Assembly (NCBI GenBank): GCA_965221775.1
Contig: CBDCSU010000006.1
Span: forward strand, 1,024,001 to 1,088,000
DNA length: 64,000 nucleotides
Source of the DNA: Candidatus Latescibacterota bacterium
GTDB lineage: Bacteria; Latescibacterota; UBA2968; UBA8231
Direction of reading: 5' to 3'
Numbering within the stretch: position 1 is the first letter of the stretch; every line of letters starts with the position of its first letter. A program made the translations under genes and the position numbers. The notes below the pieces were generated by a model that was given only the letters and a program-made list of their open reading frames with translations, had not been told where the DNA came from and did no database searches. Below are positions 6,688 through 48,313 of this stretch, one piece after another.

Positions 6688-6807
6688 GGAGTTTGAACCA
6701 AAGGGCGGGTCCCGAAACCGTCAACCAGTTTGCGCCGGGACCCGCGCCTTCGCCTAGGTACGGGTTTCCCGGGCCCATCCCCCTTCCCAGGAGAGCGGAA
6801 CCCCGAG

Positions 6808-8234: not shown

Positions 8235-8270
8235 GAGGCCGGCCTGGTGGCGGAGGGGGTCCTGCGGGGA

Positions 8271-8519: not shown

Positions 8520-8558
8520 CGTGTCGTTCCTTGCGTTGCGGTGAAGTGGTTTTTCTGG

Positions 8559-30239: not shown

Positions 30240-30268
30240 TTGCTTCTCTCTCAGCCACAAGCTATCAT
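30240..30268 (+). promoter_or_regulatory. Candidate sigma70 promoter of the helicase
   Basis: TTGCTT-N17-TATCAT, followed by GGAGG and GTG at 30306. Confidence 0.55.
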
Positions 30269-30305
30269 CGTCGGCCGCCTAAGGCACAAACCCCCGGAGG
30301 ACCAA

Positions 30306-32585
30306 GTGAGTGATCTCGACATCGAGCATTTCTTGGGGCGCCTGAAGCAACTTGACGCACTGCGCGATTCAGACACGGTGAGACGTGGAGAACTCGACCG
30401 CATAGAGCCCCGCTACGCGGATGAATGGCCCCGGCAGCTCAACCCAGCAGTCGGTGAGGCACTGACACAGGCGGGAATAGCCCAGCCCTACCAGCATCAG
30501 GCCGATGCCATCGCCCTCAGCCTGAGCGGCGCGGACGTGGTGATGGAGTCCCCCACCGCCAGCGGCAAGACCCTATCCTTCACCGCCCCAATGCTCCACG
30601 CCCTGAAGCAAACTCGTGATTCCCATGCGCTGATGATCTACCCCATGAAGGCCCTGGCTTTCGACCAGCGTGAGCAAATCCGCCACATTTGCGAACCGCT
30701 CGGTGTAGAATCATGGCCTTACGATGGCGACGCGTCAGAGGACATCAAGACTTGCCTACGGGAAAGCCCTCCTCACATCTTACTGACCAATCCCGAATAT
30801 CTCAATATGTCATTCCTGGCAAGCCGGGAGTCGTGGAACAAACATGCGAAGGGATCTCGATTCCTGCGCAACTTACGCTATGTCGTCATTGATGAAATGC
30901 ACGAATACCGTGGGTTCTTCGGCAGCAACATGGCACTCTTGTTGCGCAGGTTTTTCCTACATCTCAGTCGCATTGAAGCACACCCCCAGGTGTTTCTTTC
31001 CACCGCGACCTGTGCCAATCCGAGGGAACATGCCCAGTCCCTGACCGGACGCGACATGGAAGTAGTGTCCGCAAGGAACGTGCTACGTCCCAGACGGCAC
31101 TTCCTCTTCGTTGATCCGGAAATCCCCTCCTTTCAGTACAGGGAAGTACTCCAGTTGCGTATCGAGCAAGCTGCACTCACCGCCCTTACTGAAGGGTTGC
31201 AGGTTCTGGTGTTCTGCCCCACCAAGCGCTTCCTGGAGGGGGCATTCCGCAATTGTCGGCGCAAGGCAGATGAGCAGGGCTTCGACCCAGATCAGATCTC
31301 TGCATTCCATGCCGACCTCAAGAGCGAACAACGTCAGGACATTCAGCAGGAGATCAAGGCAGGCAGAGTCCGTGTGGTGTTCACTACTAACGCCTTGGAA
31401 ATTGGGCTCGACGTTGGCGGCCTGGATGGAGTGATTCTAGCAGGTTTCCCCCCCAGCATAATGTCGGCTTGGCAGCAGATTGGCCGCGCCGGACGCGCGT
31501 GGGACCAAGATGCCTTCGTGCTCTTCTACGCCATGAACGACCCCATCGATCGCTTCTTTGTGGGCAATCTCGGAGCCTTCTTGGAAAAGCCCTTCGACGA
31601 ACTGGTGGTAGATCCTGCCAACGAAGAACTGATCGGCAAACACCTTCCTTCCCTGGTCGAAGAAACCGGAGGAAAAGTCTCGACTAGTGAAGAGGCCATA
31701 CTCGGCGGGCCATTCTACAGAAGGGCAGAGAAGAACACCGGGACGGTTCCGGCAGGCTTCAAGCCACAATTCGCTCTGAATCTCCGTGGAGCTATCGGAC
31801 AGTCTTTCGTCTTGAAGAGAGGCAATGAAGAACTGGGACAGGTTTCTGCCATGCGAAGGTTTCGTGAAGCCTACATAGGAGCCATTTTCCCCTTCTTTGG
31901 CCACCGCTATCATGTGCGCTCCCATGAGGAACAGTCTGTCGTCCTTGAAGACTCTGAACAGCACCTCCGAACCGAACCCGGATTCTACACAGTACTTTCC
32001 AAGGCTGATATCTTGGATGGTCGCAGTTACGGGGACATCAGCGTCTACTACGGCTCTCTCGACATCGTGGTCAATTTCACTGGATACAAGCTGGTTGACG
32101 AGCGTTCCGGAGACGTCATCAAGACCGGTGGCGACAACGATGCCTTGTTCCTCAAGAGCCTGCATTCTCTCTGGCTTGACGTGCCACAAAGCGAAACCGC
32201 GGTTGACGGCATTGGGGCAGTAGAGCACATGATTCGCGTCGGGGCAATGTTCGTGATTCCAATGGACCGTTTCGACACCAGCACCTACTCGGTCCGGGGT
32301 GGCGAGCTTGCCGCGTACTGCTACGAGAACTACTCCGGCGGCATCGGAGTGGCGAAGAAGCTCTTCAGCGTGTGGGACACGGCAATGGAGAAGGGAGCGG
32401 AGATCGCCCGCAACTGCCGGTGCCCCCTGGGATGCCAAAACTGCATCGAGCCTGCCAAATCCTGGGACATCAGCAACGCCCACATTGACAAGGTGAAGGG
32501 ACTCGAACTGGCAGAGGACCTGTTGGGGGCAGTACGCGAAGGGCCAACTCACGAATTCAGGAATGGCCTAATGGGTCCCGTATAG
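30306..32585 (+). CDS. SF2 DEAD/DEAH helicase with C-terminal DUF1998 Zn domain (MrfA/Hrq1/SftH-like)
   Basis: PYQHQ, TASGKT, YPMKAL..DQ, DEMH, TNALEIGLDVG, QQIGRAGR and GGIG...CRC..GC..C motifs. Visibly lower GC than its flanks. Confidence 0.9.
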   Translation: MSDLDIEHFLGRLKQLDALRDSDTVRRGELDRIEPRYADEWPRQLNPAVGEALTQAGIAQPYQHQADAIALSLSGADVVMESPTASGKTLSFTAPMLHALKQTRDSHALMIYPMKALAFDQREQIRHICEPLGVESWPYDGDASEDIKTCLRESPPHILLTNPEYLNMSFLASRESWNKHAKGSRFLRNLRYVVIDEMHEYRGFFGSNMALLLRRFFLHLSRIEAHPQVFLSTATCANPREHAQSLTGRDMEVVSARNVLRPRRHFLFVDPEIPSFQYREVLQLRIEQAALTALTEGLQVLVFCPTKRFLEGAFRNCRRKADEQGFDPDQISAFHADLKSEQRQDIQQEIKAGRVRVVFTTNALEIGLDVGGLDGVILAGFPPSIMSAWQQIGRAGRAWDQDAFVLFYAMNDPIDRFFVGNLGAFLEKPFDELVVDPANEELIGKHLPSLVEETGGKVSTSEEAILGGPFYRRAEKNTGTVPAGFKPQFALNLRGAIGQSFVLKRGNEELGQVSAMRRFREAYIGAIFPFFGHRYHVRSHEEQSVVLEDSEQHLRTEPGFYTVLSKADILDGRSYGDISVYYGSLDIVVNFTGYKLVDERSGDVIKTGGDNDALFLKSLHSLWLDVPQSETAVDGIGAVEHMIRVGAMFVIPMDRFDTSTYSVRGGELAAYCYENYSGGIGVAKKLFSVWDTAMEKGAEIARNCRCPLGCQNCIEPAKSWDISNAHIDKVKGLELAEDLLGAVREGPTHEFRNGLMGPV

Positions 32586-32702
32586 TGGAAGCCCCGACAA
32601 GGACGTTCGCCGGAGCAAATCCACCTCTCTCCCCGATGGAGATCCCCCGGGGCGATAGGGGTGAAAGGGTGGGCAGTGCCCCGGGCGTTCTTGCTTCCGC
32701 CC

Positions 32703-35240
32703 TCAACCCCGCTGCCCCGCCAGCGGCACCTCCGTGCTCTCGCTGGTGGCCAGGGTCAGGGCGCGCAGGTCCTCGGGCTCGATGTTGTGGAGCACCGTCT
32801 TGCCGCAGCAGCGCGCCATCATCGACGCCTCGCTGCAGTTGGCGCGCACCAGGTTGGCCACGGCCGAGGCGCGCTCCCCGGCGCCGAGGTCGGCGTCGAA
32901 GGCCAGCTCCGAGCCCTGCACGTGACCTCCCGCCGCCAGTCCCGCCGAGACACCCAGCACCATGGCCGCGGCGCCCAGGCCGATGAGCTTGGCCGCGTCG
33001 GTGCCGGAGCGGACCCCGCCGAAGTGGACCAGGTCCACGTCGCCCTCGCGGCGGTGCTCGCGCAGGAGACGCACGGCGTCGCGCAACAGCCGCAGGTCGG
33101 GCGCCCCGGCCAGCTCCGCCCAGCCGTTGGCGGGCCACGCGGGGCCCTGGCCGTTGAGGAGCAGAAGCGACTGGTCCTGCTCCAAGGCCGCGGAAACGGC
33201 CGCCTCCAGATGCTCCCGCCGCGAGACGACCAGCCCCGTGACCTGGCCCTCCCGCAACCGCTCAGGCAGGCGGGCCCCGCCGGCGCCTGACACCAGCCGC
33301 AGCAGCCCGGCCGCCTCCGCCCGCGGCGCGGAACCGTCACCGCCGAGCATCTGGAGCCAGGGCACCGCCGTCTCCCGGGACAGGGGCCGGGCGCCCACGT
33401 AGACGGCCTCCGCCTCGGCCAGCCCGAGGGCCACGGCCTCCTTCACCTGGCGGGGGGACTCGTCGAAGCCGGTCACCATCAGCGGATGGGCCAGCTCCAG
33501 GACGCCGCCCAGCTCGCAGGCGACGCGGCAGGCCTCGCGGTAGGGGTCGATCACCAGGCGCGACAGGTTCGCGGGCAGGAAGACCAGGTCCTCCAGCTGC
33601 GGCGGCCGCTGCTCGGGGAAGGGGTTGTCCCGCGGCGCCAGGCGCCGCCGCAGCATGGCCTGCTGCTTGTCGGTCTCCCCCGTCTCCATGCGGGCCATGG
33701 AGAACAGGTCCTCGCGGTGCTGCACGCTGTAGTCGGGGGTGCCGGTCTCGGCGTCGCAGCGGTAGCAGCGCGCCGCCTCCTTGTGGGCCGACTCGGGGTC
33801 GTAGGTGCTCTCGATCTCGGGGAACGTCACCGGCTCGCGGCCGAGGCCGTGGAACTCCGGGTGCTGCAGGGCCAGCCGCTCCCACAAGGCGTCCTGGGCC
33901 ACCTCCACGCGGCGGGTGCGGTACGGGGTGCGGTAGGGCAGGGGCTCGTCGTGGCCCTCGAGGAAGTTGCGCACGTAGTAGGCGGCCTTCTGCCCGTGGT
34001 GCATGGCGATGACGATCGTCGAGCCGCCGAAGGCGCCGTCGCCGGCGGCGAAGACCTTGGGGTCGGTGGTGCGCATGCTGTCGAAGTCGGCGTCGATGCG
34101 GTCGGGGCGCATCATGCCCAGTTGGTCCAGCTCCTCGCAGACCCCCTTCTGCCCCACCGACGCGATCACCATGCCGCACTCGATGTCGTGCTCGCTTCCC
34201 GGCACGTTGACCGGACTGCGGCGGCCGTCGGCCTCGGGCTCGCCCAGCTCGGTGCGCACGCACTTCAGGGCGAGTCCCTCCCCCCGGGGTTCCACCGCCA
34301 CCGGCTGGGTGTGGTAGACGAACTCGATGCCCTCGGCGATCGCCCCCTCCAGCTCGATGCGCCGCGCCGGGATCTCCTCCGGGCCGCGGCGGTAGAGGAC
34401 CTGCACGTGCTCGCAGCCGGGCAGCCGCCGGGCGACGCGGCAGGCGTCCATGGCCACGTCGCCGCCGCCGACGACGACCACCTTCTCGGGCAGCCGGGGC
34501 CGCGCCCCGGCGTTGATCTCGCGCAGCCAGCCGACGCCGTCGATCACGCCCTCGTGCTCCTCGCCCGGGATCCCCATCGGCTTGCCCCACCAGGCACCGA
34601 TGGCCAGCAGCACGGCGTCGTGGCGCTCCTTCAGCTCCTCCAGGCTGATGTCGCGGCCGAGGGCGGTGTTCAGGTGGACCTCCAGGCCGGGGCAGCGCCG
34701 CGTCAGGCGCGTGATGTCCTCGTCGATGATGCCCGGCGGCAGGCGGAAGGCCGGGATCCCCCAGACCATCATGCCGCCGAGGCGGTCGGTCATCTCGTAG
34801 ACGTGCACGGCGTACCCGGCCTCGCCGAGGTCGTGGGCGGCGGTCAGCCCCGCGGGGCCGGCGCCGACGATGGCGATCGTCTCCTTCTTCGTCACCGGCA
34901 CCGGCGGCGGGTCGCAGCGGTGTCCGATGCGGTCCATGACGAAGCGCTTGAGGTTGCGGATCTGGATCGGGCCGTCCGAGTCGGTGCGCCGGCAGGCGGG
35001 CTCGCAGGGGGCGTCGCAGACGCGGCCGCAGATCGAGCTGAAGGGGTTGGTCGCCGTGATCGCCTCGAAGGCCTCCTCGTACTTCCCCTCCCAGATCAGG
35101 CCGATGTAGGAGGCCGCGTCGGTGCCCACGGGGCAGGCGACCTGGCAGGGCGCGGGTACGTAGTGGAGGTCGCCGGTGTCGTCGGCGAAGCCGGGCGGGG
35201 CGTCCGGCATGTCGATGCGCAGCAGGTCGTAGACGGCCAT
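32703..35240 (-). CDS. GltD-like Fe-S/FAD/NAD(P)H oxidoreductase fused to a degenerate glutamate-synthase FMN barrel
   Basis: PCQVACP, CGRVCDAPCEPAC, GAGPAG, GGGDVAMD and RCYRC, then LVFLPANLSR, GGVRSGTD and RCCGKTVLHNIEPEDL. Confidence 0.8.
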   Translation of the reverse strand: MAVYDLLRIDMPDAPPGFADDTGDLHYVPAPCQVACPVGTDAASYIGLIWEGKYEEAFEAITATNPFSSICGRVCDAPCEPACRRTDSDGPIQIRNLKRFVMDRIGHRCDPPPVPVTKKETIAIVGAGPAGLTAAHDLGEAGYAVHVYEMTDRLGGMMVWGIPAFRLPPGIIDEDITRLTRRCPGLEVHLNTALGRDISLEELKERHDAVLLAIGAWWGKPMGIPGEEHEGVIDGVGWLREINAGARPRLPEKVVVVGGGDVAMDACRVARRLPGCEHVQVLYRRGPEEIPARRIELEGAIAEGIEFVYHTQPVAVEPRGEGLALKCVRTELGEPEADGRRSPVNVPGSEHDIECGMVIASVGQKGVCEELDQLGMMRPDRIDADFDSMRTTDPKVFAAGDGAFGGSTIVIAMHHGQKAAYYVRNFLEGHDEPLPYRTPYRTRRVEVAQDALWERLALQHPEFHGLGREPVTFPEIESTYDPESAHKEAARCYRCDAETGTPDYSVQHREDLFSMARMETGETDKQQAMLRRRLAPRDNPFPEQRPPQLEDLVFLPANLSRLVIDPYREACRVACELGGVLELAHPLMVTGFDESPRQVKEAVALGLAEAEAVYVGARPLSRETAVPWLQMLGGDGSAPRAEAAGLLRLVSGAGGARLPERLREGQVTGLVVSRREHLEAAVSAALEQDQSLLLLNGQGPAWPANGWAELAGAPDLRLLRDAVRLLREHRREGDVDLVHFGGVRSGTDAAKLIGLGAAAMVLGVSAGLAAGGHVQGSELAFDADLGAGERASAVANLVRANCSEASMMARCCGKTVLHNIEPEDLRALTLATSESTEVPLAGQRG

Positions 35241-35244
35241 GGAG

Positions 35245-37170
35245 TCAGCCTTGGCCGGGCGCCAGCGGGAGCCCGGTGATCTCGGCGGCCTCCGGCGTCA
35301 GCGCCACGAGGTCGCCGCGGTTCAGCTCGCGGGTGCTGGAGTAGCCCATGCCGTGGGTCAGGGCGGCGATCTGCCAGCGCACGGTCTCCAGGAAGCGGTG
35401 GATGTTGCGCGCCTCCACGGCCGGCTCGTAGCGCTTCTCGTGCTCCGGGTCCTGGGTGGCGATGCCGGTGACGCACTGGCCCACGTGGCACTGCATGCAG
35501 GCGATGCAGCCGCCGGCGATGAGCACCGAGGTGCCGAAGGCGGCGGCGTCCGCCCCCAGGCAGAGGGCCTTCACCGCGTCGATGCCGTCCCGCAGGCCGC
35601 CCATGAGGACGACCTCGATGTCCTGGCGGCGGCCGATCTCCTCCAGCGCCTCCAGGGCCTCGATGATCGCCGGCAGGGTGGGGATGCCCACGTGGTCGAT
35701 GACCTCGCCGCTGCCGGCGCCGGTGGCGCCCTGCATGCCGTCCAGCTCGACGAAGTCGAAGCCGTCCTTGACGGCGATCTTGATGTCGTCGCGCACGCGG
35801 CCGGCGCCGAGCTTGACGCTCACCGGCTTGCGGTAGCCCGTGGCCTCGCGGAACTCCTCGATCTTGATGACCAGGTCGTCGGCGCCGAGGATGTCCGGGT
35901 GGCGCGACGGCGAGCGCAGGTCGATGCCCGCCGGGATGCCGCGGATCGCCGCCAGCTCCGGCGTCACCTTCTTGGCCATCAGCTGGCCGCCGAGGCCGGG
36001 CTTGGCCCCCTGGGAGATGTAGATCTCCAGGCCGTCGGCGCGCTTCATGTCGTGGATGTTCCAGCCCAGGCGGCCGCCCAAGCACTGGAAGATCAGCTGC
36101 TTGGCCGCGTCCCTCTGGGCGTCGCTCATGCCGCCCTCGCCGGTGTTCTCGGCGATGTCGGACATGGCCGAGGCCATGGCCACGGCCTGCTTCGTCGAGC
36201 GGCTGATGGCGCCGTAGCTCATGGGCGCGATCATGACCGGCATGCTCAGCTTCAGCGGCTCCGCTCCGTTGAGGCCGCCGATCTCGGTGCGCATCCGGAC
36301 CCTGGAGACCACGTCTTCCACCTGCCCGGCGCCGGTCAGGTCGGCGCGGAAGCCGAGGTCGGCCAGGTGCGGAAGGGGCCGCGCCGCCCCGTAGCCGCGG
36401 ATGCGGTAGCGGCCGATGCGCGACTTGACGTGCACGTCCTCCTGCACCTTGGGGTTCCAGTACTCCGAGTCCCGCGAGTAGGTGAAGAAGGGGATGCTGC
36501 GCACTTGGGGCTCCTCGGTGGCGTAGCGCAGCTTGGTGCCGGCGTTGACGATCTTCCGCAGGGAACCGCGGAAGGGGATCTCCCAGCGGTCGAGGAACTC
36601 GCGCACGCTGTCGTCGTCGCCCTCGTCCAGATCGGTCAGCTCGGCGTCGCTGCCGAGGTCGCGAACCTGGCCCCCCACGAAGATCTCGCCCCCGGTCATG
36701 TCCTCGCCGACGCGCTCGCCCGAATCGCCGAGGAGGATGATGCGCCCCCCGTACATCATGTAGCCGGCCATGAAGTTGGCGTTGCCGGCGCAGCACAGGG
36801 TGCCGGCCTTCATCACCTGGCCGGCGCGGGAGCCGAGGTTGCCGTGGACCACCACCTCGGCGCCGCGGATGGCGACGCCGGCGATGGCCCCGGCGTTGCC
36901 GCGGACCACCACCGATCCGGTGTACATGTTGTCGGCCAGCCCCCAGCCGACGTTGTTGTCGACCTCGAAGCGGGCCTGGTCCGACAGGCCGGCGCAGAAG
37001 TAGCCCGCCGACCCCCGCACCCGCACACGGATCGGCGAGGTGAGGCCGACGCCGATGTGGTGGCGGGCGTCGGGGTTGAGGACCTCCACGTCCTCGCCGG
37101 CCTCGCCGTGGGCGCGGATGCGTTCGTTGGCCTCGCGGACCGGTACTTGGGCGAGATCTACCTGGACCAT
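35245..37170 (-). CDS. Fused GXGXG (GltB3/MgsB-like) plus FMN-binding (GltB2/MgsC-like) glutamate synthase-related protein
   Basis: N-terminal beta-helix (G.AG.FCAG, GSRAG..MKAG, MAGYMMYGG), followed by APMSYGA, NTGEGG, QGAKPGLGG and CIACMQCHVGQC. Confidence 0.88.
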   Translation of the reverse strand: MVQVDLAQVPVREANERIRAHGEAGEDVEVLNPDARHHIGVGLTSPIRVRVRGSAGYFCAGLSDQARFEVDNNVGWGLADNMYTGSVVVRGNAGAIAGVAIRGAEVVVHGNLGSRAGQVMKAGTLCCAGNANFMAGYMMYGGRIILLGDSGERVGEDMTGGEIFVGGQVRDLGSDAELTDLDEGDDDSVREFLDRWEIPFRGSLRKIVNAGTKLRYATEEPQVRSIPFFTYSRDSEYWNPKVQEDVHVKSRIGRYRIRGYGAARPLPHLADLGFRADLTGAGQVEDVVSRVRMRTEIGGLNGAEPLKLSMPVMIAPMSYGAISRSTKQAVAMASAMSDIAENTGEGGMSDAQRDAAKQLIFQCLGGRLGWNIHDMKRADGLEIYISQGAKPGLGGQLMAKKVTPELAAIRGIPAGIDLRSPSRHPDILGADDLVIKIEEFREATGYRKPVSVKLGAGRVRDDIKIAVKDGFDFVELDGMQGATGAGSGEVIDHVGIPTLPAIIEALEALEEIGRRQDIEVVLMGGLRDGIDAVKALCLGADAAAFGTSVLIAGGCIACMQCHVGQCVTGIATQDPEHEKRYEPAVEARNIHRFLETVRWQIAALTHGMGYSSTRELNRGDLVALTPEAAEITGLPLAPGQG

Positions 37171-38063
37171 GTGGCGTAGGTTCCCGGCGGGGGCTCGCGG
37201 GTGTCGAGGGCCTGGCCGGGGAACAGGCGGTTGAGGGAGACCTCCTCGGAGGCGACGGCCACCAGGTCATCGTTCTCGTACATGATCATCGGCTTGGCGG
37301 CGATGCGGTCCTTGGCGTAGCCGATCTCGTCCTTCGTCGACACCAGGAAGGAGAAGGTGCCGTCCAGGTCGTCGATGGAGGTGCGCAGGGCCTCCTGGAG
37401 CGGCACCCCCTGGGAGAGCTTGTCCGCCAGGTAGACGGCGATCAGCTCCGAGTCGTTGTCGGTGGCGAACTCGAAGCCGCGCTGCTCCAGGCGGCGGCGC
37501 ATCTTCCAGTAGTTGGTGATCTGGCCGTTGTGGACGATGGCCACGTCGGCGAACCCGGTGGCCCAGAAGGGGTGGGAGGCCTCGGGCTTGACGTCGCTCT
37601 CGGTGGCCAGGCGCACGTGGCCGAGGCCGTGGCTGCCCTCGAACTGCTGCACGCCGTAGCGCCCGTCCACGTCGCGGGCGCCGCCCACGTCCTTGACGAT
37701 CTCCAGGCTCGAGCCGATGGAGACGACCTTGGCGGCGTGCTCCACGGCGTAGGCGAAGCGCTGCAGGTCGCCGTCGAACTCGACGGTGACGCGGTAGTCG
37801 CCGCCGACGCGCTCCTCGCTCACCACCGAGGCCCCCTGCTGCTTCAGGGCCTCGCCGATGCGGGCGCAGGCCGCCTCGGCGCCGCCGTCCTCGCCGACGA
37901 TGAAGCGCAGCCGCAGGCGCCCGGGCTCGTCCTCGCCGTAGAGGGCGAACCCGGTGGAGTCGGGGCCGCGGTGCTGGCAGCCGTCGAGCATCTCCACCAG
38001 GGCGCGGCCGGCGCTCAGGTGCTCCGGCGGACGCTTGAACAGGATTCCGGCGATGCCGCACAT
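37158..38063 (-). CDS. mgsA: Class II (Ntn) amidotransferase, N-methylglutamate synthase subunit A-like
   Basis: MCGIAG, HRGPDSTG, GHVRLATES, HPF, VHNG and NDSE motifs. Adjacent to GltB2/GltB3 homologue. Confidence 0.75.
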   Translation of the reverse strand: MCGIAGILFKRPPEHLSAGRALVEMLDGCQHRGPDSTGFALYGEDEPGRLRLRFIVGEDGGAEAACARIGEALKQQGASVVSEERVGGDYRVTVEFDGDLQRFAYAVEHAAKVVSIGSSLEIVKDVGGARDVDGRYGVQQFEGSHGLGHVRLATESDVKPEASHPFWATGFADVAIVHNGQITNYWKMRRRLEQRGFEFATDNDSELIAVYLADKLSQGVPLQEALRTSIDDLDGTFSFLVSTKDEIGYAKDRIAAKPMIMYENDDLVAVASEEVSLNRLFPGQALDTREPPPGTYATWSR

Positions 38064-38064
38064 G

Positions 38065-38694
38065 TCAGCTCTCCCTCGGCTCAATCAGGACGGACAGGAA
38101 GCGGATGGGCAGCTCGGTGAGCTCCTCGGGCCCGTGGGGGGCCTCGGCGTCGAAGAACAGGGAGTCGCCCGGGCCCATGGCCCAGGTGCGGTCCCCGTGC
38201 CTGTAGGTGATGCGGCCCTCGAGGATGTAGATGAACTCGACGCCGCCGTGCTGGAAGACCGGGAAGACGTCCGACTCGCCGGTCAGGTGGATCAGGTAGG
38301 GCTCGACGAACATGCGCCGGCTCACGGTGTGCCCGAGGAGCTGGTACTGGTGTCCGGCGCGGGTGCCGCGGCGCTCGATGTCGAGGCCGGTGCCGGCGCG
38401 CACGAAGGAGACATCGCGGGCCTCCTCGTACTTGCGGAAGAGGGCGGTCACCGGGACGTTGAGGGCCCCCGCCAGGGCGCTCAGGGTCGCCAGGGAGGGC
38501 GAGGTGAGACCGTTCTCGATCTTGGAGAGCATCCCCGCCGACAGACCCGCCTCGCGCGACAGGTCGGCGGCGGTCATGTCCAACTGCTGGCGGAAGCTGC
38601 GGATCTGGCGGCCAATGGAGCGCTCCAGGCGGTTCTCGGGGGCGCCGGTAGTCGCCGGATCGGCGACTGCGTTGCGATGATTCGACTCGGCCAT
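38065..38694 (-). CDS. XRE-family HTH plus cupin transcriptional regulator
   Basis: LS.GMLSKIENG..SPSL, HGGVEFIYILEG and GDSLFFDAEAPHGP motifs. Confidence 0.92.
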   Translation of the reverse strand: MAESNHRNAVADPATTGAPENRLERSIGRQIRSFRQQLDMTAADLSREAGLSAGMLSKIENGLTSPSLATLSALAGALNVPVTALFRKYEEARDVSFVRAGTGLDIERRGTRAGHQYQLLGHTVSRRMFVEPYLIHLTGESDVFPVFQHGGVEFIYILEGRITYRHGDRTWAMGPGDSLFFDAEAPHGPEELTELPIRFLSVLIEPRES

Positions 38695-38701
38695 CTCCGG
38701 G

Positions 38702-38730
38702 AGTATACCTCTCACCGCCATGAGATGCAA
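38702..38730 (-). promoter_or_regulatory. Promoter of the regulator-mgs operon (probably leaderless), with a TCTCA-N6-TGAGA palindrome
   Basis: TTGCAT-N17-TATACT lies only 7 nt from the ATG at 38694. Confidence 0.6.
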
Positions 38731-38795
38731 TCTTCTTTCCCTTCATTCAACCCTTGAGCCCTGCCGTATCTTGTCGCCTTTCGGGAGGTAAATCC

Positions 38796-39287: not shown

Positions 39288-39298
39288 CTCCAGCAGAG

Positions 39299-41314: not shown

Positions 41315-41538
41315 CTCGGCGTCTTCCGGGAGGCGCGGCTCGACGTGCCCTTGGTGCCTGTGCCCAGTCGCTCGCCGCTGCATCCCGGCGCGCGCAAGCA
41401 CGAGGTCGCTGATGTTGCACAAGAGGGGTGGGGCCGGCAAGCTCGGGCGATGGCCGGGCCGCGGGTGAGGTGGCGAGCCTCCCCCTTGCGGCACATCTTT
41501 CCGCCTTCTCCCGTGCGTTACCCGCGGAGCGCCTCCGA

Positions 41539-42771
41539 ATGCCCTTCAAGCTGCTGGCCCACGGCCTGGGCGCCAGGCCCCGGCGCATGTGGCACGACCG
41601 CCCCCTGAAGGACCGCTACGACGTCGTCATCATCGGCGGCGGCGCCCACGGTCTGGCCTGCGCCTACTACCTGGCACGGGACCACGGCGTCACCGACGTG
41701 GCCGTCCTCGAGAAGAGCTACATCGGCTCCGGGGGCTCGGGCCGCAACACCGCCATCCTGCGCTCCAACTACCTCACCCCCGAGGGAGTGCGCTTCTACG
41801 ACGCCAGCCTCGATCTCTACGGGGACCTGTCCGAGGATCTCGACTTCAACGTCATGTTCAGCCGCCGCGGCCACCTCACCCTGGCCCACGACGACGGCTC
41901 GGTGCGGACCATGCGCCGCCGCGCCGAGGTCAACCGCCTGCAGGGCGTCGACTCGCGCCTCGTCTTCCCCGACGAGCTGGCCGGGATCTGCCCGCAACTC
42001 GACCTCTCGGACCGCCCCCGCTTCCCCATCCACGCGGCCCTCTACCATCCGCCGGGAGGCATCATCCGCCACGACGCCGTCGTCTGGGGGTACGCCCGCG
42101 GCGCCGACGAGCGCGGTGTCGACATCCATCAGTACACCGAGGTCACCGGCATCGACGTCGTCGGCGGCGGCGTCACCGGCGTGCAGACCACCCGGGGGCC
42201 GGTGGCGGCCGGGACCGTGCTCTCCGCCACCGCCGGCTGGGCCTCCGACCTGGCCGCCATGGCCGGCCTGCGCCTGCCCCTCGACACCTTCCCCCTGCAG
42301 GCCTGCGTCACCGAGCCCCTCAAGCCCTTCCTCGACGTGGTCGTCGTCTCCGGCTCGCTGCACGTCTACATCAGCCAGTCCGGCCGCGGCGAGCTGGTCA
42401 TGGGCGCCAGCGTCGATCCCTTCACCTCCTACTCGGTGGCCGGCTCCCTCGACTTCCTCGAGGGCCTCTCGGGGCACGTGCTGGAGCTGTTCCCCTTCCT
42501 GTCGCAGGTCCGCATCCTGCGCCAGTGGGCGGGCCTGTGCGAGATGCCCCCCGACTACAGCCCCCTCATGGGGGTCACGCCGGTGAAGGGCTTCTACCTC
42601 GACGCCGGCTGGGGCACCTACGGCTTCAAGGCCTCGCCCATCTGCGGCAAGACCCTGGCCGAGCTGATCGCCACGGGGCGGTCTCCGGACCTCATCCACC
42701 CCTTCCGCCTCTCCCGCTTCGCCGAGTTCGACCCGGTGGGCGAGAAGGGCGCCGCCGCCGTGGGCCACTGA
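41539..42771 (+). CDS. mgdA: N-methylglutamate dehydrogenase subunit A / sarcosine oxidase beta-like
   Basis: GGGAHG, GRNT..RSNYLTPEG, RHDAV.WGYA and GWGTYGFK motifs. Clustered with gmaS and mgs genes. Confidence 0.8.
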   Translation: MPFKLLAHGLGARPRRMWHDRPLKDRYDVVIIGGGAHGLACAYYLARDHGVTDVAVLEKSYIGSGGSGRNTAILRSNYLTPEGVRFYDASLDLYGDLSEDLDFNVMFSRRGHLTLAHDDGSVRTMRRRAEVNRLQGVDSRLVFPDELAGICPQLDLSDRPRFPIHAALYHPPGGIIRHDAVVWGYARGADERGVDIHQYTEVTGIDVVGGGVTGVQTTRGPVAAGTVLSATAGWASDLAAMAGLRLPLDTFPLQACVTEPLKPFLDVVVVSGSLHVYISQSGRGELVMGASVDPFTSYSVAGSLDFLEGLSGHVLELFPFLSQVRILRQWAGLCEMPPDYSPLMGVTPVKGFYLDAGWGTYGFKASPICGKTLAELIATGRSPDLIHPFRLSRFAEFDPVGEKGAAAVGH

Positions 42772-43055
42772 TGCTGCTGCTGGCCTGCCCCCACTGCGGC
42801 GAACGCAACGTCTCCGAGTTCCACTACGGCGGCGAGTACAGCCCGCGGCCCTCGCCCTCGACGGCGGCGGACGACGAGGAGTGGCACGACTACCTCTACC
42901 TGCGCGACAACCCCATGGGGACCCGCCGCGAGTGGTGGCTCCACCGGGCCGGCTGCGGCCTGTGGTTCCTGGTCGAGCGCGACCGGCGCACGAACGCCGT
43001 CTCCCGGACCTTCCGGTGGTCCCCGGACAGCGCGCCGGCCGAAGGCGCCGGATGA
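42771..43055 (+). CDS. mgdB: N-methylglutamate dehydrogenase subunit B / sarcosine oxidase delta-like
   Basis: CPHCGER...EF.YGG, YLYLRDNP and W.H..GC..W (Zn site). Confidence 0.8.
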   Translation: MLLLACPHCGERNVSEFHYGGEYSPRPSPSTAADDEEWHDYLYLRDNPMGTRREWWLHRAGCGLWFLVERDRRTNAVSRTFRWSPDSAPAEGAG

Positions 43056-43137
43056 GCCGCTCCGGCGGCCCCGGCGGCACCCGGGTGTGTTGGGCGGACC
43101 TCCTCCAGCTGCGACGCGGCGTCCGGAAGGGCCGGCC

Positions 43138-46100
43138 GTGAGCGGACCCTCGCACCGCATCGACCCGCGGCCGGGGGAGGTCCTGGACCGCGGCCGCAGC
43201 CTGCGCTTCCGCTTCGGCGGCCGCCAGTACAGCGGCTGCGCCGGCGACACGATCGCCTCGGCCCTGGCCGCCGCCGGGGTCTCCCTCTTCAGCCGCTCCT
43301 TCAAGTACCACCGGCCCCGCGGCCTGCTGTGCTGCGCCGGCCACTGCCCCAACTGCCTCGTGCAGGTCGACTCCGAGCCGAACGTGCGCGCCTGCACCCG
43401 GCCCCTTGAGCAGGACATGGCGGTCTGGCCGCAGAACGTCTGGCCCTCCCTCAAGCTCGATCTCATGGCCCTGACGGAGCGGCTCTCGCGCTTCCTGCCC
43501 GCCGGGTTCTACTACAAGACCTTCATCCGGCCGAAACGGCTGTGGCCCCTGTACGACCGGGTGCTGCGCACCGCCGCCGGCCTCGGCACCGTGGACGAGC
43601 GCACGCCGGAGGGGGAGCACGACAAGCAGTACCTGCACGCCGACGTGGTCGTCGCCGGGGGCGGGCCCACCGGACTGAGCGCCGCCCTCGCCGCCCGCGA
43701 GAGCGGCGCCCGGGTGCTGCTGCTCGACGAGAACCCCGCCGTCGGCGGCCACCTGCGCTACAGCGGCCGGACGCCGCGGGCCGAGCTCGACGCCGCCGGG
43801 GAGCGGCTGGACCAAGCCGGGGTGGAGGTGCTCACCGGCACCTCGGCCACCGGCTGGTACCAGGACCACTGGCTGTCGGCGGCGCGCGGCCAGCGGCTGT
43901 TCAAGATCCGCGCCCGCGCCGTGGTGGTCGCCACCGGCAGCCACGAGATCCCGCCGCTCTTCGACGGCAACGACCGCCCGGGGGTCATGCTCGGCACGGC
44001 GGCGAAACGGCTGCTGCGCCTCTACGGCGTGGCCCCGGGCCGGCGGGCGGTGGTGGTCACCGCCGGCGACGGCGGCTGGGAGGTAGCCGCCGACCTGCTG
44101 GCTGCCGGCGTCGAGGTCGCCGCCGTGGCCGACGAGCGGCCGGGAGCGGAGCCGGCCGCGGCGGCAGACCTGGCCGCTTCCGGGGCCGAGGTGCTCAGCG
44201 GCTACACGATCGGCGAGGCCCGGGGCCGCCGCCGCGTGCGCGAGGCCGTGCTCGTGCCGGTCTCCGGGACCGGCGACCGGCGCCGGGTGCGCTGCGACCT
44301 CGTCGCCGTCAGCACCGGGCGGCAGCCCTCGGCCGAGCTCGCCTGGATGGCCGGCGCCGGCAGCCGCTACGACGAGGATCACGCCGAGATGCGGGTGGTG
44401 GACCTGCCGGAGGGGCTGTTCCTCGCGGGACGGGTCGCCGGCCTGCAGGGGCCGGTGGAGGCCGAGGAGGAGCACGGCCGCCGGGCGGGCGCCGCCGCGG
44501 CTGACCATGCGCTGGGCGCTGGGACGGCGGAGGCCGGGCAGGCCGGGCAGGCCCTGGGCACGGGGATACCCGAGGCCACGGAGTCCGGCCAGGCCCTGGG
44601 CGCGGGGACAGCGGAGGCCGCGGGGGCCGCCCACGCCCCGGGGGACGACCCCGCGGTAACCGGAGACTCCCCGGGTGAGCCGCACGCTGCCGCGGCGGCG
44701 CACGCCCTCGGCGCGGGGACACCGGAGGCCGGGCAGGCCCCGGAGGCCGTCGCCGCCCGCCCCCTGGCCGCGGACCCCGCCGATGCCGCTGCGGACCCGC
44801 CGGGAGCTGAGCCCTCCCGCTCCTCGGCGCTGGTCACTGCTCCCGCCTGCGCCGGCGGCAAGCGCTTCGTCTGCCTGTGCGAGGACGTGACCGACACCGA
44901 CGTGGAGACCTCCCTGGCCGAGGGCTACGACCACCTCGAGCTGCTCAAGCGCTACACCACCATCGGCATGGGTCCCTGCCAGGGGCGAATGTGCAACCTC
45001 CACGGCATCCGCCTGTGCGCCGCCGGCACCGGCCGCTCGGTGCAGGAGACCGGGCGGACCACGGCGCGCCCCCCCGTGACGCCCGTCTCCCTGGGAACCC
45101 TCGCCGGCCAGAAGATGGAGCCGGTGCAGGTCTCGGCGATGCACGACTGGCACCTGGCCCGCGGCGCCCGCCTGATGACCGCCGGCACCTGGCTGCGGCC
45201 GGAGCGCTACGGGGACCCGGCCGAGGAGGTGGCGGCGGTGCGCAACGCCGTCGGCCTCATCGACGTGAGCCCCCTCGGCAAGCTGCGCCTCACCGGCCCG
45301 GGGGTGCCCGACCTGCTGGAGCGCCTCTACGTCAACTCCTGGCGGGACCTGCGCCGGGGCCGGGTGCGCTACGGCATGATGTGCAACGACGAGGGCGTCA
45401 TCCTCGACGACGGCGTCTGCGCCCGGCTGGCCGACGACGACTGGTACGTGAGCACCACCTCCACCGGCGCCGCCGGCGCCCTGGAGTGGGTGGAGTGGTG
45501 GCGCCAGTCGGGCTGGGGCGACGGCGTCCACGTCACCGACCTCACCGAGGCCCGGGCCGCCGTCAACCTGGCGGGTCCCGCCTCGCGCGAGGTCCTGCAG
45601 AAGCTCACCTCCCGCGACCTGTCGAAGGCGAAGTTCCCCTACATGCGCGCCCGGCGGACCCGCATCGCCGGCCTCTCCTGCCTGGTGCTGCGCATCGGCT
45701 TCACCGGCGAGCTGTCGTACGAGATCCACGGCCCGGCGGGCGGCGGACAGTATCTGTGGGAGGCGCTCATGGAGGCCGGGGCCGAGCACGGCATCCGCCC
45801 CTTCGGGGTGGAGGCGCAGCGCATCCTGCGCCTGGAGAAGGGCCACCTGATCGTCGGCCAGGACACGGACGCGCTGTCCGACGCCATCTCCGCCGACTCC
45901 GGATGGGCCGTCAAGCTGGAGAAGGAGGACTTCCTCGGGAAGCGGGCCCTGACCCGGGTGGCGGAGACCGGCCCGAAGCAGCGCCTCGTCGGGTTCCGCA
46001 TGACCCGCGACGACGCCGCCGTGGAGGAGGGCCTGCAGATCGTCACCCGCCGGTCCCGCCGCGGCTTCGACATCATCGGCTGGATCACCTCCTGCCGGCG

Positions 46101-46263
46101 CTCGCCCACCCTCGGCGGCACCATCGGCCTGTGCTGGCTGCCGGCCGATATCGCCGCGGAGGAGGGGGCCTCCTTCTCCGTGTACGCCGGGGGCCGCCTC
46201 GAGGAGGGGCGCGTCCACCACGGGGCGTTCTACGATCCCGGCGGCGAGAGACTGCGCGGCTGA
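43138..46263 (+). CDS. mgdC: N-methylglutamate dehydrogenase subunit C / sarcosine oxidase alpha-like
   Basis: GDTIASAL, RSFKYHRPRG, KRYTT.GMG.CQG and GcvT-like folate-binding C-terminus (FTGELSYE, LRLEKG, FYDP). Confidence 0.82.
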   Translation: MSGPSHRIDPRPGEVLDRGRSLRFRFGGRQYSGCAGDTIASALAAAGVSLFSRSFKYHRPRGLLCCAGHCPNCLVQVDSEPNVRACTRPLEQDMAVWPQNVWPSLKLDLMALTERLSRFLPAGFYYKTFIRPKRLWPLYDRVLRTAAGLGTVDERTPEGEHDKQYLHADVVVAGGGPTGLSAALAARESGARVLLLDENPAVGGHLRYSGRTPRAELDAAGERLDQAGVEVLTGTSATGWYQDHWLSAARGQRLFKIRARAVVVATGSHEIPPLFDGNDRPGVMLGTAAKRLLRLYGVAPGRRAVVVTAGDGGWEVAADLLAAGVEVAAVADERPGAEPAAAADLAASGAEVLSGYTIGEARGRRRVREAVLVPVSGTGDRRRVRCDLVAVSTGRQPSAELAWMAGAGSRYDEDHAEMRVVDLPEGLFLAGRVAGLQGPVEAEEEHGRRAGAAAADHALGAGTAEAGQAGQALGTGIPEATESGQALGAGTAEAAGAAHAPGDDPAVTGDSPGEPHAAAAAHALGAGTPEAGQAPEAVAARPLAADPADAAADPPGAEPSRSSALVTAPACAGGKRFVCLCEDVTDTDVETSLAEGYDHLELLKRYTTIGMGPCQGRMCNLHGIRLCAAGTGRSVQETGRTTARPPVTPVSLGTLAGQKMEPVQVSAMHDWHLARGARLMTAGTWLRPERYGDPAEEVAAVRNAVGLIDVSPLGKLRLTGPGVPDLLERLYVNSWRDLRRGRVRYGMMCNDEGVILDDGVCARLADDDWYVSTTSTGAAGALEWVEWWRQSGWGDGVHVTDLTEARAAVNLAGPASREVLQKLTSRDLSKAKFPYMRARRTRIAGLSCLVLRIGFTGELSYEIHGPAGGGQYLWEALMEAGAEHGIRPFGVEAQRILRLEKGHLIVGQDTDALSDAISADSGWAVKLEKEDFLGKRALTRVAETGPKQRLVGFRMTRDDAAVEEGLQIVTRRSRRGFDIIGWITSCRRSPTLGGTIGLCWLPADIAAEEGASFSVYAGGRLEEGRVHHGAFYDPGGERLRG
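44503..44739 (+). repeat. Degenerate 42-nt (14-aa) tandem repeats inside mgdC
   Basis: DHALGAGTAEAGQA / GQALGTGIPEATES / GQALGAGTAEAAGA / AHAPGDDPAVTGDS ... AHALGAGTPEAGQA. Confidence 0.8.
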
Positions 46264-46946
46264 TGGCCGGGCCCTGGTACGCGACCCCCCTCCACGGCCG
46301 CTGGGAGGCCCTCGGCGCGGAGCTGACCGAGGTGGCCGGGTGGCGCGTCCCCGAGCGCTTCGGCGACGGCGCCGCGGAGGCGCGGGCGGCGCTCGAAGGG
46401 GTGGCTCTCGGCGACGAGACGCCGCGGGCCAAGCTGCTCGTGCAGGGAGACGAAGCCGCCGGGGTGGTCGTCGCCGCCACCGGCCTGGCGGCGCCGCGGG
46501 GTGGAGAGGTGAGCGGCGGCCGGGTGACCGCCTGCGGGCTGCGGCCCGACCTCCTGCTGGTGGCCGCCGGCCCCGGCGAGGGAGAAGCGATCCTGGCCGC
46601 CCTGGAGAGATCCGCAGACGCGGCCCCCGGCCTGGTGACCGTCACCGACGTGACCCACGGCCGCTTCGAGTACCGCATCGTCGGCCCGCGGGCGCCCCGG
46701 CTGCTGAGCAAGGTCTGCGGCCTCGACTTCGACGACTCCGTCTTCCCCGACCGCCGCGCCCGCCAGACCAGCGTCGCCCGCGTCAAGGCCCTGGTGGTGC
46801 GCGCCGACGCCGGAGATCTGCCCGCCTACCGCGTCCTCGGCGGGCGCGCCCCGGGCGCCTACGTTTGGGACATCCTCATGGAGGCCGGCGCCGAGCTCGG
46901 CATCGCCCCCATCGGCGCCGCCGCCCTGCGGTCACTGCAAGCCTGA
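46263..46946 (+). CDS. mgdD: N-methylglutamate dehydrogenase subunit D / sarcosine oxidase gamma-like
   Basis: VTDVTHG, GPRA..LLSK.C.LD, QTSVA and Y.WD.LMEAG.E.G motifs. Coupled to mgdC. Confidence 0.78.
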   Translation: MAGPWYATPLHGRWEALGAELTEVAGWRVPERFGDGAAEARAALEGVALGDETPRAKLLVQGDEAAGVVVAATGLAAPRGGEVSGGRVTACGLRPDLLLVAAGPGEGEAILAALERSADAAPGLVTVTDVTHGRFEYRIVGPRAPRLLSKVCGLDFDDSVFPDRRARQTSVARVKALVVRADAGDLPAYRVLGGRAPGAYVWDILMEAGAELGIAPIGAAALRSLQA

Positions 46947-46978
46947 GCATACTTCAACGCATCCCCGAGGAGAGGGTC

Positions 46979-48313
46979 ATGGAACTGAGAGACGTGCAGA
47001 AATGGGTGAAGGACGACGGCATCGAGTACTTCCTGTGCTCCTTCGTCGAGATGGGCGGCATGCCCAAGGCCAAGCTGGTGCCGGCCACCAACCTTCAGGA
47101 CATGGCCGCCGAGGGCGCCGGCTTCGCCGGCTTCGCCGCCGGCAACATGGGCCAGGGACCCCACAGCCCCGAGCTGGCCAACATGCCCGACTTCGGCCAG
47201 GGGATGATCGTGCCCTGGCGGCCCAACATGGCCTGGGTCCCCGGCAACCTCGAGGTCGAGGGCGAGCCCTTCGACTACTGCCCGCGCACCATCCTCAACC
47301 GCCAGCTCGAGCGCGCCCGCGGTCTCGGCTACCGCTTCAACGTCGGCGTCGAGGCCGAGTTCATCCTCCTCGAGCGCGACGAGGACGGCCACTTCACCAC
47401 CAGCGATCCCTTCGACACCCTCGACAAGCCGTGCTACGACCTGGTCACCCTCAACCGCAACTTCGACCTCATGACCACCCTCATCGGCCACCTGCAGGCC
47501 CTCGGCTGGGGTCCCTACGCCAACGACCACGAGGACGCCAACTGCCAGTTCGAGATCAACTGGGAGTACTCCGACGCCCTGACCACCGCCGACCGCCACA
47601 CCTTCTACCGCTGGATGGTCAAGACCATGGCCGAGGAGCGCGGCCTCCACGCCACCTTCATGCCCAAGCCTTTCGGCGACCTCACCGGCTCGGGCGCCCA
47701 CTTCCACATGAGCCTGTGGGACACCGACAACGAGACCAACCTGTTCCTCGACGACAGCGACCCCAGCGGCCTGACCCAGATGGCCTACCACTTCATGGGC
47801 GGCGTCCTGGCCCACGCCAAGGCCCTCGTGGCGGTCACCGGTCCGCTGGTCAACAGCTACAAGCGCCTCACCCGCGGCGCCCCCCGCTCCGGCGCCAGCT
47901 GGGCCCCGGTGTACGTCACCTACGGCGGCTCCAACCGCACCCAGATGATCCGCATCCCGGCCCCCGGCCGCATCGAGAACCGCTGCGTCGACGGCGCCGC
48001 CAACCCCTACCTGGCCAGCGCCGTGCTGCTGGCCGCCGGCCTCGACGGCATCGAGAACCAGACCGACCCCGGCCGCCGCAACAACGAGAACCTCTACGAG
48101 CTGACCGAGGCGGAGCTGGCCGAGCGCGGCATCGACTACCTGCCCGCCACCCTGCGCGACGCCTGCGACGCCCTGGAGCAGGACGAGGTGGTCCGCGAGG
48201 CCCTCGGCCAGGAGTACTCCGGCTACTACCTGGAGTGCAAGCGCGAGGAGTGGGGGTCCTACCACCAGGCGGTCAGCGACTGGGAGCGGGAGACCTACCT
48301 GTCGGTGTTCTGA
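46979..48313 (+). CDS. gmaS: Gamma-glutamylmethylamide synthetase (GlnT/type III GS-like)
   Basis: KAKLVPA, GAGFAGFA, NDHEDANCQFE, ATFMPKPF and NRTQMIR motifs. Located after mgdABCD. Confidence 0.85.
   Translation: MELRDVQKWVKDDGIEYFLCSFVEMGGMPKAKLVPATNLQDMAAEGAGFAGFAAGNMGQGPHSPELANMPDFGQGMIVPWRPNMAWVPGNLEVEGEPFDYCPRTILNRQLERARGLGYRFNVGVEAEFILLERDEDGHFTTSDPFDTLDKPCYDLVTLNRNFDLMTTLIGHLQALGWGPYANDHEDANCQFEINWEYSDALTTADRHTFYRWMVKTMAEERGLHATFMPKPFGDLTGSGAHFHMSLWDTDNETNLFLDDSDPSGLTQMAYHFMGGVLAHAKALVAVTGPLVNSYKRLTRGAPRSGASWAPVYVTYGGSNRTQMIRIPAPGRIENRCVDGAANPYLASAVLLAAGLDGIENQTDPGRRNNENLYELTEAELAERGIDYLPATLRDACDALEQDEVVREALGQEYSGYYLECKREEWGSYHQAVSDWERETYLSVF

Follow-up and report, generated by a model that had tools for sequence, protein, structure and literature searches.

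Gene organization of the locus

The 64,000-nt stretch of DNA analysed here (the window; roughly 72% G+C) carries on its reverse strand an operon whose last gene, named X (32703..35240), encodes a GltD/NfnB-like reductase joined to a putatively dead barrel of the MgsC/GlxD type. X is 845 amino acids (aa) long, starts with ATG and has a third-position G+C of 0.97, like the other real genes of the window. It is preceded by a fused mgsBC-like gene (BC; 35245..37170) of 641 aa, which combines a GXGXG beta-helix with a Glu_synthase flavin mononucleotide (FMN) barrel and contains a QGAKPG loop and the cysteines C555, C558, C561 and C566, and by an mgsA-like gene (A; 37158..38063) for a class II, N-terminal nucleophile (Ntn) amidotransferase. 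A, BC and X are referred to below as the trio. The gene before them encodes an HTH_3 (XRE) plus cupin regulator (38065..38730), and a regulator of the same kind precedes the classical N-methylglutamate synthase clusters (44% identity in cluster L091). The true start of A was found to be the ATG of ATG TGC GGC (MCGIAG), 1 base past the stop codon of the regulator, and BC starts 13 nt before the stop codon of A. The stop codon of BC (TGA, 35245-35247) is followed by 4 bases (ctcc) and then by the ATG of X at 35240, which confirms the spacing of 4 nt given in an initial annotation of the window. The regulator, A, BC and X form one tightly packed four-gene unit. A scan of positions 32300-39400 for promoters and terminators returned no promoter-like site and a single terminator-like site, which was intragenic, and these numbers did not exceed those in shuffled sequences.

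A homology search with the C-terminal part of X gave at least 873 relatives at E <= 0.001 among 8000 candidates scored, so that X lies far beyond chance; most of the relatives listed resemble X in Pfam make-up and measure ~840 aa. With one genome kept per species, 319 loci encode an X relative, and the best 80 of them were analysed. All 80 come from metagenome-assembled genomes (MAGs), which belong to the Gemmatimonadaceae- or Latescibacterota-labelled kin of the window, the Alpha- and Gammaproteobacteria, the Planctomycetota, the Opitutales and the Acidimicrobiia. Residue conservation was assessed in an alignment of 100 full-length X homologues and, for the motifs of BC, in 63 BC proteins of trio loci.

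The N-terminal half of X is a reductase module

The initial annotation had assigned iron-sulphur (Fe-S), flavin adenine dinucleotide (FAD) and reduced nicotinamide adenine dinucleotide (phosphate) (NAD(P)H) motifs to X, and all three were recovered in its N-terminal half (X_N; residues 1-500; 33741..35240). Pfam domains were found well above their cut-offs, with Fer4_20 at residues 30-104 (E 4e-23; 81.8 bits, cut-off 25.8) and Pyr_redox_2 at residues 122-416 (E 3e-30; 106 bits, cut-off 26.1). Across the 100 homologues, G126, G128 and P129 of the FAD motif GAGPAG are invariant, as are G258-G259-G260-D261-V262, M264 and D265 of the NAD(P)H motif GGGDVAMD. Eight cysteines are likewise invariant (C32, C36, C71, C75, C79, C83, C492 and C495), a number that suffices for two predicted [4Fe-4S] clusters. 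C492 and C495 sit past the flavin domains in the motif TFPEIE...EAARCYRC, which we take to be the displaced beginning of the N-terminal cluster motif of GltD. The displaced RC..C motif is present in every homologue, and the fact that the Fer4_20 match starts only at profile position 30 fits a displaced first CxxC. Judged by these motifs, X_N is a complete Fe-S/FAD/NAD(P)H module of the GltD/NfnB type.

Overall, X scored below the cut-offs of the GltD models (TIGR01317, 200.4 versus 447.7; TIGR01318, 259 versus 483; TIGR01316, 270.5 versus 471.8) and of its best NCBIfam model, PRK12771 (405.6 versus 516), and its best families are GltD-like families named 'NAD(P)-binding protein'. The best sequence relatives of X_N among solved structures are the large subunits of NfnABC and StnABC together with NfnB (9bov_A, 8oh5_C, 9n5u_A and 4ylf_B; E 8e-97 to 4e-78), with GltD also near. 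The motif around C492 and C495 aligns with that of the NfnA/StnC structures, and 9bov_A, 8oh5_C and 9n5u_A share the F.E...EA.RC..C pattern past the flavin domains. In the Nfn and Stn enzymes, however, the module is combined with molybdopterin-oxidoreductase-like or other parts and takes part in electron bifurcation, whereas its fusion partner in X is a dead glutamate-synthase barrel.

The C-terminal part of X is a degenerate barrel

The C-terminal part of X (X_C; residues 534-845; 32706..33641) was assigned to a degenerate FMN-type triosephosphate isomerase (TIM) barrel. It reached 17.1 bits with the Pfam family Glu_synthase (PF01645), below the cut-off of 20.4, and FMN_dh also matched weakly. 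BLASTP aligned X_C with the neighbouring BC at 40% identity over 60 aa (E 3e-7), and hhalign against the BC family gave a probability of 97.9% (E 4.6e-13) over 165 columns, which comprise the latter half of the barrel together with the C-terminal helix. Because a Foldseek search with the whole of X was dominated by the reductase part, the barrel was folded separately. Its AlphaFold model is an alpha/beta barrel with a predicted local distance difference test (pLDDT) value of 87, and its best Foldseek matches are the TIM barrels of FMN-dependent alpha-hydroxy-acid oxidases, at a template modelling score of about 0.5.

The initial annotation had described the second domain of X as FMN-barrel-like but devoid of QGAKPG and of the cysteine motif of the neighbouring copy, and this description applies to the whole set of homologues. 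GAKPG occurs in 0 of 100 X homologues versus 63 of 63 BC proteins, and the pattern C..C..C....C in the last 330 residues in 0 of 100 versus 62 of 63; the cysteine cluster of BC aligns with gaps or with residues other than cysteine in X_C. The invariant blocks of X_C are FLPANLSRLVIDPYREAC, GGxRSGTDxxK and EASMMARCxGKT...EPED, while the middle of the barrel is its least conserved part. In a hand-checked alignment, the N-terminal block (FLPANLSRLVIDPYREAC) and the tail (ARCCGKT.LHN.EPEDL) were nearer to separate GlxD/MgsC proteins than to the adjacent BC, and a search of a plasmid collection returned no X homologue and only a match of the tail to a rhizobial glxD, at 49% identity. Across phyla, X_C is 44-94% identical, compared to 72-98% for BC relative to the BC of the window. 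In a maximum-likelihood tree of the barrels, X_C forms one clade (support 100/100) and the trio BC proteins are set apart by a branch of weak support (65/0); the deep relations of this tree are unresolved, and no donor lineage is therefore claimed. By these comparisons, X_C is a diverged FMN-type barrel of the MgsC/GlxD kind whose substrate loop and Fe-S ligands are predicted to be lost.

We also considered X_C as a homologue of the central domain of GltB. This was rejected, as hhalign against canonical GltB (an alignment of six rows, one of them in the wrong frame) gave E 0.43 and matched the FMN-phosphate motif only. The GltB central domain PF04898 gave no match in A, BC or X at E <= 0.01, nor in X_C at E <= 1. 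The central domain of GltB is a rudimentary barrel, and its likeness to X_C may be taken as a functional analogy only.

The A-BC-X trio is conserved across phyla

At all 80 loci, which span several phyla, X follows a fused mgsBC-like gene that itself comes after an mgsA-like gene. The end of the BC barrel lies less than 200 nt before X on the same strand in 78 of the loci; in one of the other two the genes overlap at the start codon, and in L036 an insert of 1.7 kb (8260-9976) separates BC from X. Where enough upstream DNA was available, A stands directly before BC (61/63 loci), the exceptions being L007 and L052; at the latter, a gap of about 1.5 kb (6470-7988) separates A from BC. The spacing is mostly tight. 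The overlap between A and BC measures 19 or 13 nt in 59/61 loci, and the distance from BC to X is at most 4 nt, or the two genes overlap, in 53/64 loci (mostly -4 to +4 nt).

The amidotransferase, GXGXG and FMN domains of GltB have their homologues in A and BC, which are encoded together, as in MgsABC. A keeps the N-terminal cysteine of Ntn amidotransferases, and BC keeps the 2-oxoglutarate loop. The canonical GltB of the same genome has a C-x5-C-x4-C with which C555, C561 and C566 of BC align; C558 is the fourth cysteine, and all but one of the 63 BC proteins have kept the motif. The active-site motifs GEGGM, RS..RHPD and DGMQG of BC are of the Mgs/Glx type, as opposed to GEGGE and SGHDGGTGA of the GltB type.

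The cysteine cluster was also considered as a trait that is confined to the trio and co-varies with X, and this was rejected, as 6 of 13 separate MgsC-like proteins have it too. Among the separate MgsC/GlxD-like proteins (L083-L092, L099-L105), six of the glxD type, including Rhizobium etli glxD and those of relatives from the window's genus, have no cysteine past the FMN-phosphate motif and thus, unlike the trio BC, no cluster at all. Six others have a C...C-x2-C-x4-C cluster, and two of these are located in gmaS/mgd clusters without a GltD-like gene.

Evidence for an association of BC with X

A fusion search in representatives of 1.84 billion proteins identified P0129 (1486 aa), in which BC and X are naturally fused in a single chain, and P0133 (1031 aa), in which BC is fused to a dead barrel without the reductase. 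The barrel of P0133 is only 42% identical to X residues 494-845, which indicates a separate lineage. Leads from a protein atlas agree with alternative arrangements of the dead barrel. In addition, several proteins of ~360 aa with partial Glu_synthase matches (P0164, P0170 and P0177) may be free-standing dead barrels.

A model of the complex between BC and X_C scored 0.80, compared to 0.12 for the best of 3 controls. The mark of 0.80 was reached by 58/80 solved complexes and by 2/110 mismatched pairs, a calibration that is roughly valid here, the alignments being custom. At least 86% of the contacts were common to the model runs, and the pLDDT of the partner was at least 87. On the X_C side, the modelled interface consists of the invariant FLPANLSRL stretch, the GGxRSGTDxxK motif, the EASMMARC helix and the C-terminal tail; on the BC side, it consists of the linker between B and C, the region of the GAKPG loop and residues 454-504. 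Invariant positions of X_C are enriched in the interface (16/43 within 61 of 312 residues; Fisher p = 0.003), while the enrichment of invariant BC positions is weak (p = 0.06). The invariant stretch ANLSRLVIDPYRE has a pLDDT <50 in the model of the free chain and becomes part of the interface in the model of the complex; the invariant stretch 557-569 of X is disordered in the free-chain model. The complex model supports binding between BC and X_C without demonstrating it. The earlier proposal that the dead barrel docks the reductase is thus backed by the natural fusions and by the modelled complex.

Link to the methylamine and N-methylglutamate pathway

On the other strand, 3.3 kb beyond the regulator, the window contains mgdABCD followed by a ligase gene. 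These genes encode an MgdA/SoxB-like FAD oxidoreductase (DAO; 41428..42771), an MgdB/SoxD-like delta subunit (42771..43055; PF04267, E 1e-30), an MgdC/SoxA-like alpha subunit with the domains Fer2_4, SO_alpha_A3 and GCV_T (43087..46263), an MgdD/SoxG-like gamma subunit (46260..46946) and a ligase of the GlnT/GmaS family (46949..48313; TIGR03105, 598 bits versus a cut-off of 469.6); the start codons of the MgdA- and MgdC-like genes are uncertain. Among the 80 loci, a gene resembling glutamine synthetase (GS) was found at 24 and mgdA at 10, and the GS-like gene was located directly downstream of X in 13/66 loci with at least 2 kb of downstream DNA. A gmaS-like or mgd gene was found near the trio in 15 of the 42 loci that had at least 5 kb on both sides (the fetched flanks measured 7.6-10 kb).

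At the level of whole genomes the link was broader. The fusion is not found mainly in genomes that lack gmaS and mgd, a distribution that would have spoken against the initial proposal: a gene of the GlnT/GmaS family was present in 29 of the 30 trio genomes tested. X occurs in 20/61 relatives of the window's genome, namely in 19/36 of the same family and in 0/24 of other families of the class, and a TIGR03105 ligase above the cut-off was found in 20/20 X-positive versus 16/41 X-negative relatives (tables matched by eye, and the kin are non-independent). Trio genomes from other groups had such a ligase in 9/10 cases. The ligase beside the gammaproteobacterial trio scored 674 bits with TIGR03105, and ligases of classical clusters scored 670 and 686 bits.

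We also inspected the surroundings of gmaS in eight X-negative genomes. Six of them have mgdA-mgdC-mgdD, separate mgsA, mgsB and mgsC, and gmaS together, and two of these six belong to the genus of the window; their MgdA is 83-84% identical to that of the window, while their Mgs proteins are 32-39% identical to A and BC. The remaining two stretches showed a partial MgsC-like match only, at the edge of the fetched DNA. In X-negative kin, orthologous mgd genes thus lie next to classical mgsABC, in the place of which this genome has the trio.

A scan of 16 trio genomes for PF01645 found a canonical gltB of ~1500 aa in 15, so that a second plain glutamate synthase (glutamine:2-oxoglutarate aminotransferase, GOGAT) is not needed there. 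In six of the 16 (G000, G003, G006, G010, G029 and G035) the canonical gltB and the trio are the only Glu_synthase genes. G003, a MAG labelled Opitutales, has mgdA-mgdC-gmaS, and G035 and G027 have mgdA-mgdC-mgdD-gmaS; in all three, no mgs gene lies within about 9 kb and the trio is located elsewhere. The stretch fetched from G029 contains mgdD-gmaS only.

A second, divergently oriented GS-like gene lies upstream of the trio at L040 (6057-7577, reverse strand), L043 (104-1765, reverse strand), L030, L037, L019, L024 and L071, often with an adjoining Amt transporter gene; with TIGR03105, the L040 type scored 524 bits and the L043 type stayed below the cut-off. G009 has a further mgsC-like gene on the contig of the trio, at a distance of ~10 kb.

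Neighbouring genes in the window

A gene of 781 aa that is convergent with X (30240-32585, forward strand) lies in a patch of low G+C (0.57 versus about 0.72). Its product has DEAD/DEAH helicase, Helicase_C and MrfA Zn-binding (MZB) domains, and PADLOC returned matches to the helicase core only (SngC, BrxHI, DruE and DpdF). The gene looks horizontally acquired and may be related to defence or repair. Between the operon of the trio and the mgd-gmaS operon lie a gene for a hexapeptide-repeat acetyltransferase (38754-39287, forward strand) and one for a 731-aa protein with an N-terminal calcineurin-like phosphoesterase domain (39299-41494, reverse strand); neither was found as a conserved neighbour at the other loci. 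The MgdC-like protein contains, at residues ~463-577, an internally repetitive insert of ~115 residues that is rich in Ala, Gly and Pro (repeats of the type ALGAGT.EAGQA) and separates the N-terminal flavin part from the A3/GCV_T part. In tblastn, the matches of relatives break at query residues 455-472 and 574-591, which suggests that the insert is lineage-specific.

Discussion

The trio resembles several known systems. Like the classical MgsABC/GlxBCD enzyme (in Rhizobium etli, glxB-glxC-glxD-glnT beside soxBDA, L092), it is built of homologous amidotransferase, GXGXG and FMN-barrel parts whose order is the same, and the two also have the kind of XRE regulator, a GlnT/GmaS ligase and Mgd/Sox-like dehydrogenase genes in common. 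In the trio, however, B and C are fused, X is added as a fourth module, and A and BC are only 30-46% identical to the separate mgsA/B/C-like sets. The GltB-GltD NADPH-glutamate synthase has the same cofactor modules (an Ntn amidotransferase, an FMN barrel with Fe-S ligands at equivalent positions, GXGXG, and FAD, NAD(P)H and two [4Fe-4S] parts), whereas in the trio these are distributed over three genes in another domain order, Glu_syn_central is not detected, and the beta-like subunit carries a fused dead barrel and falls below the GltD model cut-offs. Dihydropyrimidine dehydrogenase resembles X in domain order, its FMN-type TIM barrel coming after Fe-S, FAD and NADPH domains, but its barrel is a catalytic one of the dihydroorotate-dehydrogenase type with a ferredoxin domain behind it, whereas the barrel of X is of the MgsC/GlxD type without the catalytic loops. 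Overall, the trio is related to both NADPH-GOGAT and MgsABC/GlxBCD and is a full member of neither. An identity as dimethylamine monooxygenase (dmmABC) was rejected, as the available part of PMC5520151 gives small subunits (36 and 24 kDa) and no link to glutamate synthase.

Part of this scheme is in print. The genes glxBCD/glnT of SAR11 have been proposed as N-methylglutamate pathway genes (PMC3160333), and PMC6237917 describes a GS/GOGAT-like scheme for GmaS and N-methylglutamate synthase. The published three-subunit model of N-methylglutamate synthase includes no reductase subunit, and PMC6237917 gives the redox cofactor as unknown, with NADH, NADPH or ferredoxin as candidates. A literature search of incomplete coverage, with supplements outside its reach and sources seen in part, returned no account of a GltD-like subunit of N-methylglutamate synthase or of an X-type fusion. 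The novelty is the dedicated reductase subunit, not the methylamine GS-GOGAT scheme itself, and the trio is apparently an undescribed, widespread four-module variant of the glutamate-synthase/N-methylglutamate-synthase family.

As the trio is the only Mgs-like enzyme in the window's genome and adjoins mgdABCD-gmaS, its most likely role is that of N-methylglutamate synthase in this pathway. We consider it somewhat more probable than not that the trio is an NAD(P)H-driven, GOGAT-like N-methylglutamate synthase in which X acts as the electron-input subunit of a three-gene enzyme. X_N has all the parts required to accept a hydride from NAD(P)H and hand on single electrons. In such an enzyme, NAD(P)H would reduce the FAD of X_N, and electrons would reach the Fe-S cluster of BC (C555/C558/C561/C566) by way of the two [4Fe-4S] clusters of X_N and then move on to the FMN of BC, which would reduce the imine formed from 2-oxoglutarate and the amine freed by the amidotransferase. 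X_C would be a duplicated MgsC/GlxD barrel that has lost its catalytic role and docks the reductase on BC. The overall reaction would be gamma-glutamylmethylamide + 2-oxoglutarate + NAD(P)H giving N-methylglutamate + glutamate, with both donor and direction being presumptive. GmaS would act before the trio and Mgd after it, and the nitrogen of methylamine would end in new glutamate. In the mechanism of Pollock and Hersh, by comparison, the classical redox-neutral exchange on glutamate reportedly releases ammonia. The initial annotation had proposed such a methylamine version of GS-GOGAT, made up of GmaS, MgsA/BC and X, and this proposal is supported in part. The fixed position of X as third gene, the complete reductase module and the replacement of mgsABC by the trio speak for this proposal; its genetic linkage is weaker, with gmaS or mgd nearby at only 15/42 loci and a classical cluster also present in some trio genomes.

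Several observations weigh against this interpretation. At 27/42 well-flanked loci, neither a GS-like nor an mgd gene was found in the fetched flank, and the alphaproteobacterial loci carry genes for an M20 peptidase, a LarA-like protein, an ATP-binding cassette (ABC) transporter and unrelated genes instead. Separate mgsC-like genes are also held by 10/16 trio genomes, and G005 has a full classical regulator-mgsABC-gmaS-mgd cluster besides the trio, so that other candidates for the enzyme exist in some genomes. The cysteine motif occurs without an X gene in the 6/13 separate MgsC-like proteins described above, two of them in gmaS/mgd clusters, so that the Fe-S cluster alone does not call for X. 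The phosphate-type motif GGxRSGTDxxK, which bears on FMN binding, is still conserved in X_C. Moreover, the sequence does not discriminate between glutamine and gamma-glutamylmethylamide as donor, and the co-occurrence counts, which come from non-independent relatives, exaggerate the link. The link of the trio to methylamine is real but partial.

One alternative sees in the trio a second GOGAT isoenzyme, an ordinary NAD(P)H glutamate synthase that depends on glutamine and is split and permuted; the GlnT and Amt neighbours would then reflect ammonium assimilation. All cofactor modules of GOGAT are present, GS-like and Amt genes adjoin the trio at some loci, GlnE lies about 6 kb from it in L035, and mgd is not nearby at most loci. 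However, the canonical gltB found in 15 of the 16 scanned genomes and the Mgs/Glx-type active-site motifs of BC weaken this explanation; the adjacent ligases also belong to the GlnT/GmaS family, as in classical clusters, and the trio replaces classical mgsABC beside orthologous mgd genes. We therefore regard a second GOGAT as rather unlikely. The constancy of the trio amid varying flanks (gmaS/mgd, the second GS type, Amt, M20 peptidase, hydrolases and ABC transporters), together with gmaS-family genes in G073 and G074 that have no mgd or mgs matches nearby, would fit a reductive aminase that acts on 2-oxoglutarate with a gamma-glutamyl amide or a free amine, the amine varying by lineage and methylamine being one case. 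This is unlikely, since the 72-98% identity of BC across phyla argues for one conserved chemistry, and no other amine pathway was consistently linked to the trio.

Two further alternatives concern the role of X itself. X_C could still be alive, keeping FMN as a second catalytic or electron-relay site in a layout like that of dihydropyrimidine dehydrogenase; the shared domain order, a Foldseek alignment of 800-1000 columns with that enzyme (at a high root-mean-square deviation) and the invariance of the phosphate-binding-type motif GGxRSGTDxxK point in this direction. On the other hand, all 100 homologues lack GAKPG and the cysteine cluster, conservation is lowest in the middle of the barrel, and the conserved motif lies in the BC interface of the complex model, which makes a live barrel very improbable. 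Finally, X might draw electrons off, with glutamate or N-methylglutamate being oxidized and NAD(P)+ reduced, or might merely prime or repair the flavin. Modules of the GltD/NfnB type are reversible in principle, but a conserved amidotransferase is sensible only for amine delivery, in the synthetic direction, and the oxidation of N-methylglutamate is already covered by mgdABCD; we give this last alternative hardly any credence.

A wider proposal, which we hold to be somewhat less likely than not, can also be made. The trio might represent a fourth architectural class of glutamate-synthase-type enzymes, in which the dead barrel provides scaffolding as the GltB central domain does. Together with GmaS and MgdABCD, it might close a 'methylamine GS-GOGAT' cycle in which nitrogen goes to glutamate and carbon to methylene-tetrahydrofolate without free ammonia, an unrecognised route of nitrogen assimilation in uncultured Gammaproteobacteria, Alphaproteobacteria, Planctomycetota, Opitutales and Gemmatimonadota-like bacteria.

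PMC6237917 leaves it open which redox partner serves N-methylglutamate synthase, and X offers a directly testable answer for the X-bearing form. A dead barrel that is fused to a reductase, to BC, or possibly stands alone would make a clear case of a duplicated catalytic domain that has become an assembly module. A built-in NAD(P)H reductase separates two chemistries, the redox-neutral exchange on glutamate and the reductive amination of 2-oxoglutarate. If the reductive reading is true, the nitrogen of methylamine would enter glutamate with free ammonia bypassed, which would bear on methylated amines as nitrogen sources in the environments from which these MAGs were recovered.

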